Source: an uncultured Actinomycetota bacterium | Lineage (GTDB): Bacteria > Actinomycetota > Geothermincolia > Geothermincolales > RBG-13-55-18 | Reading direction: 5' to 3' | DNA: 33,083 nucleotides | Assembly (NCBI GenBank): GCA_964354675.1 | Contig: CAYHAT010000001.1 | Span: forward strand, 1-33,083 | Part shown: one piece after another, positions 5,243-32,968 of the stretch | Position numbering within the stretch: the first letter of the stretch is position 1 | Layout of the letters: each line of letters starts with the position of its first letter | Program-made: the position numbers and the translations under genes | The notes under the pieces: generated by a model | What the model saw: only the letters and a program-made list of their open reading frames with translations | Told to the model about the DNA's origin: nothing | The model's database searches: none

Positions 5243-6460
5243 TCAACGCGCGGGCTGCCTTCCATGCCCAGACGCCAGGGCCTCGAGCAGCTCGCCCTCC
5301 AGGATGCGCGCGTTCTTGTCCTTGTCGAACAATCTCCGGGCACGCTCTGCACCCGCCCCGCCCATCCTCGCCGCCCTCTCTTCGTCTCCCAGTATGGAGG
5401 CCATGGCGCTGGCCATGCCCTCGAAGTCCCCGGGAGGCACGACCAATCCGGTGACCCCGTCCTCCACCATGACCGGGATTCCCCCTCCATCGGCCGCCAC
5501 CACCGGGAGCCCCAAGGCCATGGCCTCGATGATCACGTTGGGGAGCGGGTCGGGCATGACCGAGGCATGTACCACCACGTCGACCGAGGCCATGATATCC
5601 GGAATATCCTCGCGGAAGCCGGTGAAGATCACCCGGTCCTCGAAGCCCAGCTCGCGGGGCAGACCCCTCAGCATGTCCTCGAACGCCCGCTCGCCGAACA
5701 TGGCGTCCCCCACCACCAGAAAACGGGCCTCGGGGATCTCTTTCGCGACCGCCGCCGCCGCCCTGAGGAAATAATCCGGGCCTTTCCACTCTACCAGCCG
5801 TCCCACGAATCCGGCCACCGGGGCACTGGCATCGATGCCCAGCTCCGTCCTCACCTCGTCCCTCTTCCTGACCGGGCACACCTTATCGAAGTCGATGCCG
5901 TAATAGACGACCGATAATTTTTCGGCGGGCACCCCCAGCATCATCAGGGCTTCCTTGACCGCCGGGGAGGGGGTTATGACCTTGGCGGCGAGATACTTGG
6001 CACAAGTCGTCAGTAGCCGGATATTGAACCTGCTGAAGGCCTTCTCGTCCACGACGTCGTGAATGCGCCATACCACCGGACGGAGCGCCAGTCGTCCCGC
6101 CAGACTTCCGTAGATATCGGCCTTGGCGCTGTTGGTGAACACCAGGTCGAAGCCCTCCCGCCTTATCAAACGGACCAGCCTGACGACCGTGATCAGCATA
6201 TCCCAGGGGTATGCCAGCATCGCGAGTCGATTGGCGCCGAGAGAACGCCTCTTGATGTTCAGGAGCCTGGGCGTGGGATATCCTTTATAAACCGCCATCC
6301 CCCTCTCCTTCATCTCCTCCGTCAAGGGGCCTTCCTCTGGGCATGCCAATGCAGGCTCGAAGCGCTCGCGGTCTATCTCATCGAGGAAGCGCAGCAGCGC
6401 CTGCTCCGCCCCCGCGATCCTCACCACGTGGTTGATTATCAATATCTTATGTCTATCCAT
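5243..6460 (-). CDS. Family 1 (GT4-type) glycosyltransferase
   Basis: N-terminal ILIINHVVRIAGAEQ. C-terminal nucleotide-sugar binding region: PNVIIEAMALGLPVVAADGGGIPVMVEDGVTG. GAGGAG SD lies upstream of ATG 6460. Confidence 0.9.
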   Translation of the reverse strand: MDRHKILIINHVVRIAGAEQALLRFLDEIDRERFEPALACPEEGPLTEEMKERGMAVYKGYPTPRLLNIKRRSLGANRLAMLAYPWDMLITVVRLVRLIRREGFDLVFTNSAKADIYGSLAGRLALRPVVWRIHDVVDEKAFSRFNIRLLTTCAKYLAAKVITPSPAVKEALMMLGVPAEKLSVVYYGIDFDKVCPVRKRDEVRTELGIDASAPVAGFVGRLVEWKGPDYFLRAAAAVAKEIPEARFLVVGDAMFGERAFEDMLRGLPRELGFEDRVIFTGFREDIPDIMASVDVVVHASVMPDPLPNVIIEAMALGLPVVAADGGGIPVMVEDGVTGLVVPPGDFEGMASAMASILGDEERAARMGGAGAERARRLFDKDKNARILEGELLEALASGHGRQPAR

Positions 6461-16979: not shown

Positions 16980-17209
16980 CCGTACATCGCAGTGTGGCGT
17001 CTCTCCGAAGCCTTTCCAGGCTTATCCCCCCGCAACACGTTACGTCCATGCAGGAAGCGGATTACCTTATCCCGCGTTTCCGGTAACCAACCACGAAGTG
17101 ATCTTTGCTCGAATTGCTCAAACATATATCGGGATTTGACCTACCACATGATAATGAGAAAATCTCTCGTCGCTTCCCTTTCCTATATACTTTGGAGGTC
17201 TTCATATAA

Positions 17210-17378
17210 GGTTCTTCTCCGAGAAGTGTGGGTAGCGGGAGATGATAACTGGGGCAACACTTTGGGGTCAGACCTCAAAAATCTGCCTCTCCACCCGCCA
17301 CAGCTATGTTAATCGTCGCAAACATGAGAGGCAATTTTTGAGGTCTGACCCCAAAGTGTTGCTTCTCGGAGAAGAACC
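17210..17378. repeat. Nested long hairpin element, family A, copy 1
   Basis: Outer inverted repeat 17210-17226 / 17362-17378. Inner arms 17254-17291 / 17326-17362 (about 37 bp with one bulged C). 34-nt loop at 17292-17325. 27-nt one-sided internal loop at 17227-17253. Confidence 0.75.
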
Positions 17379-17393
17379 CAGCAACATGTAAGC

Positions 17394-17421
17394 TTGATTT
17401 TTCCTGGATTTGGGGTATAAT
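17394..17421 (+). promoter_or_regulatory. Strong sigma-70-type promoter (TTGATT-16 nt-TATAAT)
   Basis: TTGATT at 17394-17399 and TATAAT at 17416-17421, in an AT-rich patch. Confidence 0.6.
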
Positions 17422-17427
17422 TTATAC

Positions 17428-17549
17428 GATTGCAATAGAAACAACCATTCGAAAGGGAAGCGAAGATCCGTAGCGCGTGACGTGGTCACCTGAGTTGCGG
17501 GGAGCTAATGGTGAAACCGGCCCGATCGTTCAACACGGTCGGGCTTTTT
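17428..17549 (+). ncRNA. Candidate riboswitch aptamer or small RNA ending in an intrinsic terminator
   Basis: Nested helices: ACCAUU 17444-17449 / AAUGGU 17507-17512; CCGUAGC 17468-17474 / GUUGCGG 17494-17500; GUGAC 17477-17481 / GUCAC 17485-17489. Terminator stem 17520-17528 / 17536-17544 is followed by UUUUU at 17545-17549. Confidence 0.5.
17520..17549 (+). terminator. Rho-independent terminator
   Basis: 9-bp stem GCCCGAUCG / CGGUCGGGC (one G-U pair), 7-nt loop UUCAACA, then a five-U run. Confidence 0.7.
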
Positions 17550-17815
17550 CATACAAGGTCAAGCAGGCAAAAGAGGTTAGAGACAAAGGAGAGGACGCAA
17601 GAAGGGGTAGAAGGGCTGGAAAAGGGGCAGGCTTTCCGGTCTTGACCAGGACTTACTCGGCGTAGAGATCTGGTTCAGATTCTGGAGACATCACCTCCCC
17701 CTCTTCCCGGGACCGTCAGACGGAGCTCTTTTTCGCCTTACGCCCACAAGATCGAGAGGCGCGCTGTAATTGCGTCCCTACTGACGAGAAGGGCAAAAAA
17801 GCGGAGGTGACATTC

Positions 17816-20800
17816 ATGAGAAAATCGACCAAGTGGCTGGCCCTCGTCTCCATCACGGTATTGGTAGTGTTGACGCTTCTGGGCGGTATCGTTTCTGCAC
17901 TGGCTGGGAACGACAACGTACCGCCCGTCGTTGAACAGACCGTGATGGCCGAGGGAGTGGCGGGTGCTGCGCCGGTGCAGGAAGTGATTCCGCCAGCGGA
18001 GGAACCCGTGGTAGAGGATGGGGCCGAGGCGCTGGCCCCCGCAACGGAGATCCTAGCAGATCCGGCGGGGGGTGGGGATCTCGTCGAGGCTCCCGCCACC
18101 GATACGCCGGTGATCGAGCCGGACGCAGGTACCCAGTGTAAAGGCAAGATCTGCGTCATCAAGTTCCTCGACACGAACGAGAACAGCGAGATAGATGGCG
18201 GCGAGATCGGTATGGCCGGGGTCACCATCACCCTCAACGGAGGGAACGCCAAACAGACCGGCAATGACGGCAAGGTCTGCTATGACGACCTCAATCCCGG
18301 TGAATACACTGTGAGTGAGATCGTCCCTACCGGCTACCATGCCACCACCCAGACCTCCTACTGCATAAAAATCTGCTGGGAAGATTGTGTGACGGTATAC
18401 TTCGGCAATGCCCCGAACATCGTGCTCAAGGGCTCCATCTCCGGCCATAAGTGGCTGGACCCGAACGGCGACGGCTCGTACGAGGACAAGACCCCGCTGG
18501 AGGGAGTGCCCATCGAGCTGTGGAAGGATAACACATTCTTCGACTCAACGACCACCGCATCAGACGGGAGCTACTCATTCACCGACCTCGAGCCGGGTAA
18601 TTATACCGTCAAGGAGATCTCCCCGGCAGGCATGGTCCCCATCCCGCCGGACAGCATAGACGTCACTTTGGCCGAGGGCCAGAACGAAACCGGCAAGGAT
18701 TTCTACAACAAGTACAAAGTGGTACTCAAGGGCTCCATCTCCGGCCACAAGTACGCGGATTACGACTGGGACGGAGAGCATGACCCCGGCGAGCCCGGTA
18801 AGGGCGGCGTGATCATCAAGCTCTTCAAGGATGGAGGCATGGTCGCGGAGACCACTACCGCCTCGGATGGCTCATACTCGTTTGACCAGCTCGCCGACGG
18901 GTCGTATACGGTAGAGGAGACGGTGCCCACCTATTGGAAGAACTCCTCCCCCATCAGCCTGGACGTGACCGTCGCGGATGGATCCCAGGTAACGGGGGTG
19001 GACTTCCACAATTACTGCGACTCCGGCGTGGTGGAGGTGATCTCCTTCTGGGACAAGGACTGCAACGGCAAGGGAGGGGACGACGTACAACTGGCCGGGG
19101 TCACCGTGCAGCTCATCCACAAGAAGGGTGGCGTATGGGTGCCCGCCGACGGGTACGACGGTTCTTCCCAGAAGACCACGGCTCCCGGCTGGTCCTACCC
19201 GCCCATATGGATGCCCATTCCCACCTGGTACGACGCGGTCACCGGATGGAACAACCTGCCGTGTAACGATGGAAGCGGAGTGGCCTGGTACGACGTCAAC
19301 GTCATCAGCATTCCGGACGGATGGACTCTCAGCGAGAAGTGGCCCACGGGTCCGTACGCGCTCAAGTGCGAGTCCATCTATTGCCGGTGGCAGCGGGTGG
19401 AGATCTACCTGACGCCCAAGTTCCACATCAACGGCCACAAGTACGAGGATAAAAACTGCAATGGCGTGATCGACGCCGGGGACACAGGCGTGCCGGGAGT
19501 GGAGGTCAAGCTCTTCAAGTGGAACGAGGGGAGCGACACCTACGAGTACGTGAAGTCGACCACCACCGCTGGCGCCAATGGCTACTACGAGTTCACCGGG
19601 CTTCTGCCGGGTACCTACAAGGTGCAGGAGATCCTCACCGCGGAGCTGCTCGAGGACTGGTTTATCGTCAGCCCCGCCGGGGGCGTGTACGAGGGCGTCG
19701 CGGTCTCGTGCGGCAGCAGCATCGAGAATAAAGACTTCCTCAACGCCCGCTACGGAGCCATCTCCGGCCATAAGTACGAGGATAAGAACTGCAATGGCGT
19801 GATCGACGCCGGGGACACAGGCGTGCCGGGAGTGGAGGTCAAGCTCTTCAAGTGGAACGAGGGGAGCGACACCTACGAGTACGTGAAGTCGACCACCACC
19901 GCTGGCGCCAATGGCTACTACGAGTTCACCGGGCTTCTGCCGGGTACCTACAAGGTGCAGGAGATCCTCACCGCGGAGCTGCTCGAGGACTGGTTTATCG
20001 TCAGCCCCGCCGGGGGCGTGTACGAGGGCGTCGCGGTCTCGTGCGGCAGCAGCATCGAGAATAAAGACTTCCTCAACGCCCGCTACGGAGCCATCGAGGG
20101 CTGGAAGTACTGGGATAAGGACGAGAACGGCATCATGGACGGAGAAGACGAGGGCCTGGCAGGCGTGACTATCATCCTCACGCCCGAGGTAGGTCCATCC
20201 CAGACCGCGGTGACCGACGAGGACGGGTATTTCTTCTTCGATAAACTGCTGCCCGGTAAGTATACGGTCAGCGTGGACGAGTCTACGGCCCCCGATTACT
20301 ATCCCATAAGCGCCACCTCCATCGAGGTGGAGGTGACCTGTGGAAAGACGACAAAAGTCTACTTCTCCGAGGCTCCCTACGGCTCCATCTCCGGCAAGAA
20401 GTGGCTCGACGCCGACTTCGACGGCATATGGGGCGAGGACGAGACGGTGGTCATCGAGGGCATCACCATCAAGCTCTACGCCGGCAACCCGCCGCAGGAG
20501 CTCATCGGCACGCAAGTGACCGGCGAGGATGGGTACTACGAGTTCACCGGCCTCCAGCCCGGGACCTATACCGTCGTGGAGGAGGGCAAGGAGGGTTACT
20601 TCTCCTGCACCCCCGACAGCGTACTGGTCGAGCTCTCGGCGGGAGAGGGCGCCGTGGTAGACTTCGGCAACTGCCCTTACGGGCGCATCGAGGGATTGAA
20701 GTTCCTCGACCTCGACGGTGACGGAGCCCAGGATCCGGGCGAGCCCACCCTGGAGGGCGTGGAGATCACCCTCGTAGGTCTCGGCGACGTCGGTGCCATG

Positions 20801-21430
20801 GCCGTGGCCACCACGGGCAAGGACGGCACCTTCGTCTTCAAGAACCTGCTGCCGGGTGAATATTCTGTGGAGGAAAAGGTGCCCTCCGGCTACTACGCCA
20901 CGCGGCCTATAAAGGTCGAGGTGGTCGTGGGACCGGGTGAGAGCGTGTCGGTGATCTTCGCCAACGCTCTCTACGGCTCCATCCTCGGGAACAAGTGGCT
21001 GGACGACGGCGACAGCCAACTCGACCCGACGAAGGACAAGCCCAAGGCGGGTATGACCGTCAAGCTCACCGGCAAGTCCATCGGCGGCGAAACGGTCAGC
21101 ATGCAGACGACCACTGCGCAGGACGGGAGTTACTCCTTCCTCCTGCTCGAGGCCGGCAGCTATAACGTGACCGAGGTCTACGATCCCCAGAAGATGAAGG
21201 CCATCTCCCCGGACAGCGTCGACGTGACGCTAGCCCCGGGCGGCAAGGCGATCGTGGACTTCCTGAACGTGGAGACCGAGGTGGGAGGCGAAGTAGTGAC
21301 TCCGCCCTCCGGAGAGACGCTTCCCACGACCGGCATGGACCAACTGCCATTGCTCATAGCGGCGGCTATCCTCGTGGTCATCGGCCTGGCTTTCCTGGCC
21401 TTCGGCCTGCGCCGCCGCTACCAGGAATAG
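17816..21430 (+). CDS. LPXTG cell-wall-anchored surface protein with about ten SdrD-B/Cna-B-like (prealbumin-fold) repeat domains; putative Ca-binding adhesin
   Basis: ATG 17816 with GGAGGTGA SD 6 nt upstream. Signal peptide MRKSTKWLALVSITVLVVLTLLGGIVSALA. Repeated W/Y-x-D-x-D/N-x-D/N-G loops and G-x-Y-T/K-V-x-E motifs. C-terminal LPTTG, a hydrophobic helix and an RRRYQE tail. Confidence 0.93.
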   Translation: MRKSTKWLALVSITVLVVLTLLGGIVSALAGNDNVPPVVEQTVMAEGVAGAAPVQEVIPPAEEPVVEDGAEALAPATEILADPAGGGDLVEAPATDTPVIEPDAGTQCKGKICVIKFLDTNENSEIDGGEIGMAGVTITLNGGNAKQTGNDGKVCYDDLNPGEYTVSEIVPTGYHATTQTSYCIKICWEDCVTVYFGNAPNIVLKGSISGHKWLDPNGDGSYEDKTPLEGVPIELWKDNTFFDSTTTASDGSYSFTDLEPGNYTVKEISPAGMVPIPPDSIDVTLAEGQNETGKDFYNKYKVVLKGSISGHKYADYDWDGEHDPGEPGKGGVIIKLFKDGGMVAETTTASDGSYSFDQLADGSYTVEETVPTYWKNSSPISLDVTVADGSQVTGVDFHNYCDSGVVEVISFWDKDCNGKGGDDVQLAGVTVQLIHKKGGVWVPADGYDGSSQKTTAPGWSYPPIWMPIPTWYDAVTGWNNLPCNDGSGVAWYDVNVISIPDGWTLSEKWPTGPYALKCESIYCRWQRVEIYLTPKFHINGHKYEDKNCNGVIDAGDTGVPGVEVKLFKWNEGSDTYEYVKSTTTAGANGYYEFTGLLPGTYKVQEILTAELLEDWFIVSPAGGVYEGVAVSCGSSIENKDFLNARYGAISGHKYEDKNCNGVIDAGDTGVPGVEVKLFKWNEGSDTYEYVKSTTTAGANGYYEFTGLLPGTYKVQEILTAELLEDWFIVSPAGGVYEGVAVSCGSSIENKDFLNARYGAIEGWKYWDKDENGIMDGEDEGLAGVTIILTPEVGPSQTAVTDEDGYFFFDKLLPGKYTVSVDESTAPDYYPISATSIEVEVTCGKTTKVYFSEAPYGSISGKKWLDADFDGIWGEDETVVIEGITIKLYAGNPPQELIGTQVTGEDGYYEFTGLQPGTYTVVEEGKEGYFSCTPDSVLVELSAGEGAVVDFGNCPYGRIEGLKFLDLDGDGAQDPGEPTLEGVEITLVGLGDVGAMAVATTGKDGTFVFKNLLPGEYSVEEKVPSGYYATRPIKVEVVVGPGESVSVIFANALYGSILGNKWLDDGDSQLDPTKDKPKAGMTVKLTGKSIGGETVSMQTTTAQDGSYSFLLLEAGSYNVTEVYDPQKMKAISPDSVDVTLAPGGKAIVDFLNVETEVGGEVVTPPSGETLPTTGMDQLPLLIAAAILVVIGLAFLAFGLRRRYQE
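19432..20095 (+). repeat. Near-perfect in-frame tandem duplication (2 x 333 bp) of one adhesin domain
   Basis: Offset is exactly 333 nt. 19454-19762 is identical to 19787-20095; the only differences are near the 5' edge (19438/19771 and 19453/19786). The encoded 111-aa units are identical after the first residues. Confidence 0.95.
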
Positions 21431-21457
21431 CATAATCCGACAACGTCACACCGCTTA

Positions 21458-21485
21458 GGAAAGGGCCCCTCCGGGGGCCCTTTCC
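21458..21485. terminator. Perfect 12-bp GC-rich hairpin after the adhesin gene (terminator-like, no clear U tract)
   Basis: GGAAAGGGCCCC (21458-21469), loop UCCG, GGGGCCCUUUCC (21474-21485). It starts 28 nt after the stop codon. Confidence 0.55.
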
Positions 21486-21488
21486 AAT

Positions 21489-21701
21489 GGGGCCAAGCCC
21501 GGACAGGGGACATAACGAGAGCCAAACAGAATGGCAGGGGAGAAAGCGGGCAACACTCCGGGGTCAGGCCTCGAAAATCTGCCTCTCAACCCGCCTCAAC
21601 AATATCAATCTTCGCGAACAGGAGAAGCAATTTTCGAGGCCTGACCCCGGAGTGTTGCCCCACCATAGCTCTTGTTATGTCCCCTGTCCGGGCTTGGCCC
21701 C
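21489..21701. repeat. Nested long hairpin element, family A, copy 2
   Basis: Outer 34-bp inverted repeat 21489-21522 / 21668-21701 (a single G:T opposition). Inner arms 21548-21587 / 21622-21660 are homologous to copy 1. 34-nt loop at 21588-21621. Confidence 0.8.
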
Positions 21702-21703
21702 TT

Positions 21704-22165
21704 TTACCACTCGAAAGCGATATCGGGGTCGTCGTAGGGGATGCGTTCCTCGTCAGGGTCAGCGGGATCGTAGCTCTCGGTGGTGTGATAGAAGAGGCCC
21801 ACCGGCCGGTCGCCCAACACCTGGTAGCCGTGGGCCACACCGGGAGGGATGACTATGAGCAGCGGCTTGTGCTCGCCTGTGAATATGACCTGGGTGCGGC
21901 GGTAGGTGGGGGAATCCTCCCTCAGGTCGTGCAGTACGACCCGAGCTTCACCCATGGCCATGTACCACAGGTCATATTGCTTGCGGTGCCAGTGAAAGGC
22001 CTTTATCACGCCGGGGTAGGTGACGGTGTAGGTGGTTTGCCCGAAACGCTCCAGGAGGGCATCGTCGTCGCGCAGCACCTCCAGCAGATACCCACGCTCA
22101 TCGCAGAAACGCGCCAGGGTTTTGACGCGCACACCGTCTATAGCTTCAGCGAACCGTTCATCCAT
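21704..22165 (-). CDS. rmlC: dTDP-4-dehydrorhamnose 3,5-epimerase-like cupin (short RmlC/SpsL type)
   Basis: FCDERGYLLEV, IKAFHWHRKQYDLWYMAMGEARVVLHDLREDSPTY, IPPGVAHGYQVLGD, YDPADPDEERIPYDDPDIAFEW. This matches the RmlC cupin pattern at 153 aa. Confidence 0.82.
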   Translation of the reverse strand: MDERFAEAIDGVRVKTLARFCDERGYLLEVLRDDDALLERFGQTTYTVTYPGVIKAFHWHRKQYDLWYMAMGEARVVLHDLREDSPTYRRTQVIFTGEHKPLLIVIPPGVAHGYQVLGDRPVGLFYHTTESYDPADPDEERIPYDDPDIAFEW

Positions 22166-22256
22166 GACTCATCACCCTAGTAAAGGTTAGCGGAGTGAGC
22201 CCCCCAAGGCAACCAGCGCGACACCCATCCGGATGGTACTCCCCCGCACGATTGTT

Positions 22257-22423
22257 TGCATCGCGTAAGCGACAGCGCCTTTATTTCCCGCGGGTAAGCG
22301 CCTCCACACCGAAGGTGTGGCGGACTGACCCCAGTCAAATATCCTAACGCGACGGTGCCAGTTTTTCCAGCCCGGGGCCTCGGGGTAACGGTGACTCTGG
22401 CGAGGCAAGGCCTGGCACGTGTA
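22257..22423 (+). repeat. Three-block intergenic module, family B, copy 1
   Basis: Block 1 TGCATCGCGTAAGCGACAGCGCC at 22257-22279, block 2 GCGACGGTGCC at 22349-22359, block 3 AGGCCTGGCACGTGTA at 22408-22423. All three are repeated identically at 27306-27424. Confidence 0.7.
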
Positions 22424-27226: not shown

Positions 27227-27305
27227 ACCTTATTATTACCAGGATTTGCCCCTCCGGTAAAGGCAGACCAAGCCATAACTACATAAGAACTGCGCTTCAA
27301 TAGTC

Positions 27306-27424
27306 TGCATCGCGTAAGCGACAGCGCCGTCCTCGGCGCGACGGTGCCCCAGTGCCTGGGCGAGTTCAACCTAATCTACGATCTCTCGCAACCTTTCATA
27401 ACTTGTCCAGGCCTGGCACGTGTA
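27306..27424 (+). repeat. Three-block intergenic module, family B, copy 2
   Basis: Block 1 at 27306-27328, block 2 at 27338-27348, block 3 at 27409-27424. All are identical to copy 1, but the block 1 to block 2 spacing is much shorter. Confidence 0.7.
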
Positions 27425-32082: not shown

Positions 32083-32114
32083 GCAACTTTTGAGGTCTGA
32101 CCCCAAAGTGTTGC
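32083..32114. repeat. Solo half-copy of the family A hairpin arm
   Basis: GCAACTTTTGAGGTCTGACCCCAAAGTGTTGC closely matches the right arm of copy 1 (17331-17362). It lies between convergent genes and is itself an imperfect palindrome. Confidence 0.65.
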
Positions 32115-32968
32115 TAGGGGATCCTTTCCACGCGGAAGCTGGTGCGCCAGGGGGGAGTGCCGTGGCGCATGTATACTACGCCGCTGCCGCGCAATCCCAG
32201 GCTCTTGGCCTCGCGGTAGACGTAGATTACCGCATCCTTTGCGCGAGCCCCCAGCTCGGCCCCGGCGTTGTGCACATGCATCTCCAGGTTGTGGGAGTCG
32301 AGGCCGGCCAGCCGCCCCACTTTGCGGGCGTCCACGTAGCAGCGCTTCGACTTGAGCATGAGCCAGTCGCCCGCCTCCCGCGCCTGCAGCCTCAGCTCCT
32401 CACCCTCCTCGCCGAGGCATTTGCCCGCCATGTCCACCTCAACCTGGCAGCAGTGCGCGCGGCGGAAGCAGTAGTCACCCACAGTCTCGGCGTTGATATC
32501 CAGGTACCTGGCCTTCAGGCCGGCGAAATTTCCGATGCGTTTTGCCCTCAGGGCCAGCCGCCTGTCCAGCGTACCCTCGGCCTGCATGCCCACGTAATCC
32601 AGGCCGTCCGGGATCTCCAGCTCGCCGCCGCCCAGGTGTGAGAGCGCCTCCACCCCCAGGCTGGTGAGGTAGCCCACCGCTTCGCGCTGCCACTGCATGC
32701 GCAGCTGCAGGTAATCGGAGGAGGCCTCGCGCATCAGCCTCCGCGTCAGCTCCACCACCTCCGCGTCGTCGCGGGCCGGAAGGGCCCGGCGCACGCGGAT
32801 CTTGGTGAGCTTGTCGCGCGAGCGCAGGTTGAGGAAGAAGTCGGACAGGGCAAAGTCGCGGAAACGCCGCCTGCGTGCTTCCTCCTCCTGGCGGTTCGTC
32901 TCGAGGATCTCCTGGAGGGATCCGGAGCTGCCCTTGAAGACCGGCTTTGGGAGCTTCATTCGTATCAC
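32114..32968 (-). CDS. Hypothetical protein, no recognisable family
   Basis: 284-aa ORF with coding-like composition and no competing ORF. GTG start at 32968 or ATG at 32959. I recognise no motifs. Confidence 0.6.
   Translation of the reverse strand: MIRMKLPKPVFKGSSGSLQEILETNRQEEEARRRRFRDFALSDFFLNLRSRDKLTKIRVRRALPARDDAEVVELTRRLMREASSDYLQLRMQWQREAVGYLTSLGVEALSHLGGGELEIPDGLDYVGMQAEGTLDRRLALRAKRIGNFAGLKARYLDINAETVGDYCFRRAHCCQVEVDMAGKCLGEEGEELRLQAREAGDWLMLKSKRCYVDARKVGRLAGLDSHNLEMHVHNAGAELGARAKDAVIYVYREAKSLGLRGSGVVYMRHGTPPWRTSFRVERIP

Follow-up and report, generated by a model that had tools for sequence, protein, structure and literature searches.

The two nested hairpins of the window, by which we mean the whole analysed stretch of 33,083 nucleotides, are very probably copies of a gene-less family of palindromic mobile DNA that is built in two layers. 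The outer layer would be a classical MITE whose 26-nt terminal inverted repeat, here named TIR-A, is recognised by a transposase acting in trans. The inner layer would be a REPIN-like inverted doublet of a unit of about 30 nt, which also occurs without TIR-A as singlets, tandem arrays and mosaics. Taken as a whole, the family is uncatalogued but of an ordinary bacterial kind, a MITE whose palindromic core is REPIN-like. The nested shape of the hairpins would be the result of these two layers and of secondary events. Copy 1 (17210-17378) would have lost one of the subterminal modules. In copy 2 (21489-21701) the TIR-A ends would be gone and the hairpin would be enclosed by a locus-specific outer inverted repeat. 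Because copy 1 has no intact target-site duplication and copy 2 has neither TIR-A nor a duplication, we infer the mobility of these two copies themselves from the family only.

Architecture of the two copies

Copy 1 is 169 bp long and belongs to the TIR-A family, lacking the right-hand module b (no strand is assigned to either copy as a whole; their parts are described on the + strand). It begins with the left terminal inverted repeat TIR-A GGTTCTTCTCCGAGAAGTGTGGGTAG at 17210-17235, which is common to every family copy. It is followed by module a CGGGAGATGATAACTGGG at 17236-17253, which forms a one-sided internal loop with GGGAGA and faces module b in full-length copies (L014 and L024). The inner left arm GCAACACTTTGGGGTCAGACCTCAAAAAT (17254-17282) and the inner right arm ATTTTTGAGGTCTGACCCCAAAGTGTTGC (17334-17362) were identified by an inverted-repeat search; they are 29 nt long and 100% complementary. 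The 51-nt spacer between them (17283-17333) contains a 1-nt bulge, an 8-bp stem extension TGCCTCTC/GAGAGGCA and a 34-nt apical loop in the orientation denoted F+. The right TIR-A (17363-17378) is cut to TTCTCGGAGAAGAACC and directly abuts the inner arm. The outer stem is formed by pairing of GGTTCTTCTCCGAGAA with TTCTCGGAGAAGAACC.

The internal loop of copy 1 is one-sided because the opposite module b has been deleted; full-length members of the family keep this module. Similar deletions with slightly different junctions are recurrent, being observed in L012, L011, L020 and L031. The 109-nt inner hairpin of copy 1 is identical to the hairpins of L024 and L031. The predicted folding energy of the copy is -97 kcal/mol (z -10.1), and none of 200 shuffled sequences folds as well. 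There is no intact target-site duplication (TCATATAA vs CAGCAACA). The sole open reading frame overlapping copy 1 (16992-17312) has no Pfam match.

Copy 2 consists of a diverged inner hairpin and a remnant of module a inside a locus-specific 34-nt repeat, TIR-B. Among the sampled loci, the outer left arm GGGGCCAAGCCCGGACAGGGGACATAACGAGAGC (21489-21522, + strand) was seen at this locus only. The outer right arm (21668-21701, + strand) was found by the inverted-repeat search, and the outer pairing extends slightly beyond both arms, 21486-21522 being paired with 21668-21704 (37 nt, 95% complementary). The inner hairpin (21550-21658, + strand) has arms at 21550-21578 and 21630-21658 and a 51-nt spacer, and is 80% identical to copy 1 over 126 nt. 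Its perfectly complementary arms reach 31 nt when counted from 21548-21578 and 21630-21660. The predicted fold is even more stable, -155 kcal/mol with z -17.2, and again no sequence out of 200 shuffles folds as well. Copy 2 occupies the gap from the adhesin terminator hairpin to the rmlC stop codon. It shows no excess depth in the Logan contigs, and its outer repeat is different from TIR-A.

The geometry given in the initial annotation is confirmed by these data. The positions of the two nested hairpins are correct, and the inner arms are perfect over 29-31 bp. The inner stem of about 37 bp with a 34-nt loop is obtained when the stem is continued for 8 bp beyond the 1-nt bulge, which gives 37 pairs. 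Each of the four differences between the inner arms of the two copies (TT>CC, A>G, A>G) is matched by the complementary change in the other arm, and 24 of 34 loop positions are identical (counted in alignment A6). The outer stems are inverted repeats in both copies and are unrelated in sequence. The one-sided loop with GGGAGA, which had been described as a part of the common architecture, is indeed present, but it originates from the deletion of module b. Copies 1 and 2 are 80-84% identical across about 110-126 nt.

The window contains one more trace of the family, a solo right arm GCAACTTTTGAGGTCTGACCCCAAAGTGTTGC at 32083-32115 (+ strand), found as a direct repeat with 97% identity. It is a singlet of the inner module, in the gap that separates a convergent esterase gene from an unknown gene. 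With up to three mismatches allowed, five matches to the 21-nt arm motif lie in the window, and zero matches are expected from shuffles.

Family structure, copy number and mobility

A search with the degenerate arm motif yielded 32 metagenome contigs, most of which derive from a single set of sediment samples. TIR-A (26 nt) is present at both ends of copy 1, with the right one shortened, and at both ends of eight complete metagenome copies. The full-length order is TIR-A, module a, inner arm, 51-nt spacer, inner arm, module b, TIR-A, as exemplified by L024 (6033-6239). Complete copies are 127-207 bp long, one partly duplicated copy has 286 bp, and coding capacity is nil. Other forms include loop-less short hairpins (L021, L025, L027), tandem arms (L001, L026, L011), rearranged copies (L020) and a half-duplicated copy (L015). 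In the latter (L015, 4494-4779, 286 bp), the left half consisting of TIR-A, module a, the inner arm and half of the loop is tandemly duplicated. The 8-bp target-site duplication in this locus pairs the outermost ends, so that the unit either inserted in its enlarged form or grew at its present site.

The exact 25-nt arm has zero matches in 185,579 species genomes. The degenerate 21-nt arm has three matches in these genomes, a number near chance, and two of the three (L033 and L034, the latter being the same as L007) are genuine hairpins. Four other loci (L035, L005, L022, L023) look like chance arm matches, and orphan TIR-A-like matches (in L010 and at position 2584 of L021) lie within genes and are ascribed to chance. 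No match to the element was found in the plasmid collection and the viral contigs, and a literature search found no paper containing the sequence strings of the element.

In the sediment runs the copy number is high. In four runs, the Logan contigs at copy 1 add up to 27-45 times the depth of the DNA on either side. Contigs end at the borders of copy 1, and the loose ends are discordant among themselves. Excess depth was observed likewise at L024, L027 and L021. The family is the cause of dozens of breaks in metagenome assemblies of this sediment lineage.

An 8-bp AT-rich target-site duplication flanks seven of the eight complete TIR-A copies. The two halves of the duplication are identical at all eight positions in L014, L021, L024 and L027 (the exact duplications are ttatttat, agaaataa, gtttttaa and tcatgtat) and at seven of eight positions in L012, L015 and L025. 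By our own estimate, the chance of at least seven matches out of eight in AT-rich flanks is about 0.002 per copy. In L021, the element (1290-1416, 127 bp) is flanked by the duplication AGAAATAA. Two contigs from other sediment runs, of 492 nt (run X4) and 1233 nt (run X5), join position 1279 of this locus directly to position 1415. The joint skips 135 nt, that is, the 127-bp element and one 8-bp duplication, with ten letters fitting either side. Both runs thus contain the exact empty site.

No empty-site joint was found for L027 in the metagenome contigs. A further candidate empty site, at L024, was rejected. A 4.8-kb contig of run X3 lacks 357 nt of this locus (5974-6330), comprising the whole MITE together with 59 and 91 nt of flanking DNA. 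The missing segment lies between direct repeats CCGAGCCC, so that the loss looks like a microhomology deletion across the palindrome, or a replacement, and is not precise.

The short elements of L021, L025 and L027 have the same internal junction, between GG and GGTCTGACC. All three lack the loop and the distal arms. Since they share this junction and are flanked by three different duplications, the loop and the distal arms are dispensable for transposition.

In these respects the family resembles the bacterial MITEs, such as Correia/NEMIS of Neisseria and the IS-derived ones. The elements are small (here 127-207 bp) and gene-less, have terminal inverted repeats, produce a duplication of fixed length, occupy AT-rich intergenic targets and reach high copy numbers. 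Filled and empty alleles exist, and the whole element can fold as a long hairpin. However, the combination of the 8-bp duplication and the GGTTCTTC... termini matches no family found in the literature, the plasmids or the viral contigs. The centre of the element is also peculiar, being an unusually long perfect palindrome (arms of 29-31 bp) that exists outside the MITE as well.

The outer layer inserts into AT-rich intergenic DNA and duplicates 8 bp, which would be the signature of DDE-type cut-and-paste or copy-in transposition. The 8-bp duplication and the GG termini would fit ISL3, IS6, IS1595 or IS256. An all-against-all blast of 310 kb of loci revealed no IS-sized repeat and only orthologous overlaps, and no autonomous IS with TIR-A termini was found in these loci, the plasmids or the viral contigs. 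No RAYT, transposase or nuclease gene adjoins the examined copies, all neighbours being housekeeping genes. The core resembles Tn3-type ends (GGGGTCTGAC...) over about 10 nt. No 5-bp duplication is seen, and we treat the resemblance as a coincidence.

The inner palindrome and the variation of its arms

The conserved parts of the inner unit (about 30 nt) are the core GGGGTCAGRCCTC and the foot GCAACAC. Without TIR-A, the inner module is found immediately behind stop codons or filling gene spacers (L004/L018, L013/L015/L029, L030 at 652-777, L006, L008). It also occurs as a singlet, the solo arm of the window, and as a tandem array in L001. Hairpins with near-identical cores are also present in two MAGs, one of Pseudomonadota (L033, two hairpins) and one of Gaiellaceae (L007, the same as L034). 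Several hairpin-only copies begin right after A/T-rich triplets, with TTAT or CAAT preceding GGGG and AATA preceding GGG. On reading, no target-site duplications are seen at hairpin-only copies, in contrast to the 8-bp duplications of the TIR-A copies. In L033 (2775-3010, between plsY and a ybaK-like gene), a tandem duplication comprises the hairpin and some 85 nt from the 3' end of the YbaK-like gene.

These observations bring the inner layer close to the REPINs and BIMEs mobilised by RAYT. In that system, too, an inverted doublet with a spacer folds into a hairpin of about 110 nt and is found along with singlets, tandem clusters and mosaics; the elements are extragenic, compensatory changes are common, and deletions between the units lead to shorter palindromes (PMC3116915, Bertels and Rainey, 2011). 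There are several differences, however. The inner unit has no GTAG or GTGG head beside the palindrome, GTAG being present only within TIR-A. No RAYT was found near the examined copies. Single units are barely palindromic. Finally, the abundant copies here have outer terminal repeats and target-site duplications, both absent from REPINs.

It is possible, although we hold it to be the less probable description, that the inner hairpin is the true replicative unit of REPIN type. It would then move as single-stranded hairpin DNA with the help of a single-copy RAYT-like (HUH/Y1) or other hairpin-specific enzyme, and the TIR-A MITE would be merely one of its vehicles. This possibility overlaps with the two-layer explanation and does not exclude it. 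The copies without TIR-A, the singlet and the tandem array, the mosaics of GGGGTCAG(G/C)CCTC units in L036 and L025, and the A/T-rich triplets at the starts of hairpin-only copies all suggest that the inner module may have a mobility of its own. The near-identical cores in the Pseudomonadota and Gaiellaceae MAGs point in the same direction, while the window host encodes an LPTTG-anchored adhesin. On the other hand, there is neither a RAYT or nuclease gene near the examined copies nor a GTAG head. The single arms are weak palindromes when considered alone, with fold z from -3.2 to +0.3. No hairpin-only empty site was seen, and the solo arm is fixed, its site being identical in L039 and L040 (in itself this is uninformative on mobility). 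Moreover, the hairpin-only copies could be eroded MITEs.

A bolder variant, which we regard as rather doubtful, is that the inner GGGGTCAG-core palindrome constitutes a REPIN-like class of its own. The monoderm host, the Gaiellaceae MAG and the Pseudomonadota MAG would then have near-identical cores (21-23 nt) in common across phyla, and the palindrome might belong to the same superfamily as the (A/T)ATGGGGTCAG-footed hairpins of Gammaproteobacteria. Such a palindrome would be moved by a separate putative enzyme and, in this lineage, would have been captured by a DDE-type MITE in which it hitch-hikes, resulting in a two-layer non-autonomous element with two mobilisation systems. In practical terms, the cross-phylum inner core is a lead toward the mobilising enzyme.

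The variation of the 29-bp arms is limited to about five positions and is common to whole subfamilies of independent copies. Uncompensated arm mismatches were observed in L006, L009, L011 and L016, and one such mismatch is shared by L015 and L032. The mismatch types demonstrate neither an excess of G.T nor a strand bias (nine G.T vs seven A.C/C.A, plus others). In the pair-change test, nine loop-oriented copies with 37 pairs were compared with 500 shuffles. Five of the 37 pairs are changed on both sides, a value reached in none of the shuffles. No pair varies on one side only, as in G-U steps, and ten pairs depart from the consensus only by mispairing. The 8-bp stem extension decays with no compensation. 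Thus the arms are kept alike in the all-or-nothing manner expected of DNA inverted repeats.

As the complementarity of the arms exceeds that in all 500 shuffles, some constraint on the palindrome exists; selection on the hairpin and mutational homogenisation are not separable on these data. The compensated differences could arise by two routes. Firstly, subfamilies would inherit both arms as a single unit. Secondly, the arms may be equalised by quasipalindrome template switching or by intramolecular conversion, which would also invert the spacer. Compensatory changes are common in REPIN hairpins, and singlets, tandem clusters and inter-REP deletions are described there as well (PMC3116915). 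Template switching between inverted repeats, or quasipalindrome correction, is reported to make the arms alike and to invert the spacers (PMC8604942; also PMC7202029). It is a mechanism rather than a family. Both of its predicted effects are seen here, and on this pattern of variation it may also operate in the present elements.

Indeed, the spacer and even entire elements are inverted at the DNA level. Relative to modules a and b, the loop has the orientation F+ in copy 1 of the window, L024, L026 and L031, and the orientation F- in L012, L014 and L017. Copy 2 is wholly inverted in place in L003 and L037; the respective strains are 95-97% identical, and the inverted segment is 98.6% identical.

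The initial annotation had interpreted the compensated changes as evidence for a selected RNA or DNA structure, as opposed to decaying MITE ends. This does not agree with the properties of the family, namely the terminal inverted repeats, the 8-bp duplications, the exact empty site, the tens-fold excess depth, the uncompensated arm mismatches, the free inversion of the loop and of the element, and the absence of Rfam matches. Many copies with uncompensated arm mutations and target-site duplications, the pattern which the same annotation associated with an ordinary MITE, are what is observed. Its alternative suggestion, a palindromic mobile element whose arms are homogenised by hairpin-templated processes, essentially matches the evidence, and its observation that the arms are kept complementary holds, given the five pairs changed on both sides. 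The matching stem changes reflect how palindromic mobile DNA evolves, not a selected RNA. More generally, compensatory stem changes between two copies alone do not indicate a selected RNA, as palindromic mobile DNA gives the same pattern.

We therefore consider very unlikely a reading in which the hairpins function as RNA, either as selected structured RNAs or as cis elements at the RNA level (for example, stabilisers of mRNA 3' ends or transcription insulators around the adhesin gene), and in which the compensation results from selection for RNA pairing. In its favour, the predicted folds are very stable, the number of pairs changed on both sides exceeds that in all shuffles, and one copy lies where the polysaccharide operon ends, the other behind the adhesin terminator. 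REP-type repeats can stabilise upstream mRNA. However, the orientation is not fixed: strains differ by an in-place inversion of copy 2, and copies differ in the direction of the loop. A close strain (L036) has different elements at both sites. Copies that lack the loop and half of the stem have nevertheless spread. G-U intermediates are absent, the mismatches have no strand bias, and no T-run follows the stems. The gathering-threshold Rfam search of the window and 14 loci produced only c-di-GMP-II and TPP riboswitches, tRNA and a group II intron domain, none of which overlaps the element. Besides, the promoter and the riboswitch of the adhesin gene are not part of the element, and they are conserved irrespective of the element found there.

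Two specific structures were rejected. The hairpins are not intrinsic terminators: the stems are followed by TTCTCGGAGAAGAACC in copy 1 and CCCACCATAGC in copy 2, with no T-run, and the actual adhesin terminator is a separate hairpin at 21458-21485. On reading, they are not integron attC sites either, the stems being perfect, with no extrahelical bases and no GTTRRRY core.

Genomic setting and differences between strains

The window represents a surface-polysaccharide region with genes for a priming glycosyltransferase, a Wzz/kinase-like protein, GT4 enzymes, Wzy, RmlC and RmlD. Copy 1 has the Wzy gene on one side and, on the other, the promoter of a c-di-GMP-II riboswitch (17447-17531; 57.7 bits vs the Rfam gathering score of 53.5), which is upstream of a gene encoding an LPXTG adhesin. 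The adhesin (1207 aa) has SdrD-B/SpaA repeats and a C-terminal LPTTG with a membrane anchor. Judged by this sortase-anchored adhesin, the host of the window is a monoderm. The promoter of the riboswitch begins some 11 nt beyond copy 1, and it is the same in three strains whose element junctions all differ. Hence the possibility that the promoter is borne by the element was rejected.

The strain of L036 is 99.7% identical to that of the window, and unique DNA is only 0-0.5% diverged right up to both elements (17388-21490 of the window compared). The interval of copy 2, however, is occupied in L036 by another element, which is built as a mosaic from GGGGTCAG(G/C)CCTC units and is related to the one in L025, and the right half of the copy-1 element differs from that of the window. 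Possible causes of such fast local replacement are ectopic conversion, re-insertion at a preferred foot, and template switching. Besides its 8-bp duplications and an empty site caught in the population, the uncatalogued MITE thus shows very fast local remodelling, which distinguishes even strains of 99.7% identity. The two-layer build, this rapid remodelling and the cross-phylum core make the family modestly interesting.

Another explanation of the two copies, to which we likewise give very little credence, is that they bracket the riboswitch and the adhesin gene as a functional cassette, serving as portable sites of homology or recombination for exchange, inversion or deletion. They do flank exactly one transcription unit (the promoter, the c-di-GMP-II riboswitch and the gene of the 1207-aa LPXTG adhesin), and both bracketing sites are polymorphic between strains. 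However, 80-84% identity over about 110-126 nt with unrelated outer repeats makes the copies poor recombination partners, and intergenic gaps simply tolerate insertions. Replacement of the adhesin cassette as a unit was rejected, as the divergence of the adhesin between the window and L036 is limited to the internal tandem SdrD-B domains (19200-20000), with 0-0.5% divergence up to both elements. Consistent with copies of a mobile repeat family, the hairpins around the c-di-GMP-controlled adhesin gene are repeat DNA, to be masked and not modelled as RNA genes or regulators.

The adhesin gene itself is variable. A domain is tandemly duplicated at 19426-20058, the 333-bp repeats being nearly perfect, and a contig of run X1 joins position 18077 to position 20988 inside the adhesin region. 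This suggests variation of the number of adhesin domains in the population.

Other repeats were observed in the same data. A 29-nt repeat at 22248-22279 and 27300-27328 of the window behaves as another dispersed repeat. Loose contig ends occur exactly at 22248 and 22279 in several runs, and the summed depth is raised in the region 22136-22300 (46.7 vs 13.6 in run X1). In L014 (3869-4346), a group II intron D1-D4 domain comes after a tRNA gene and represents another mobile element in this population.
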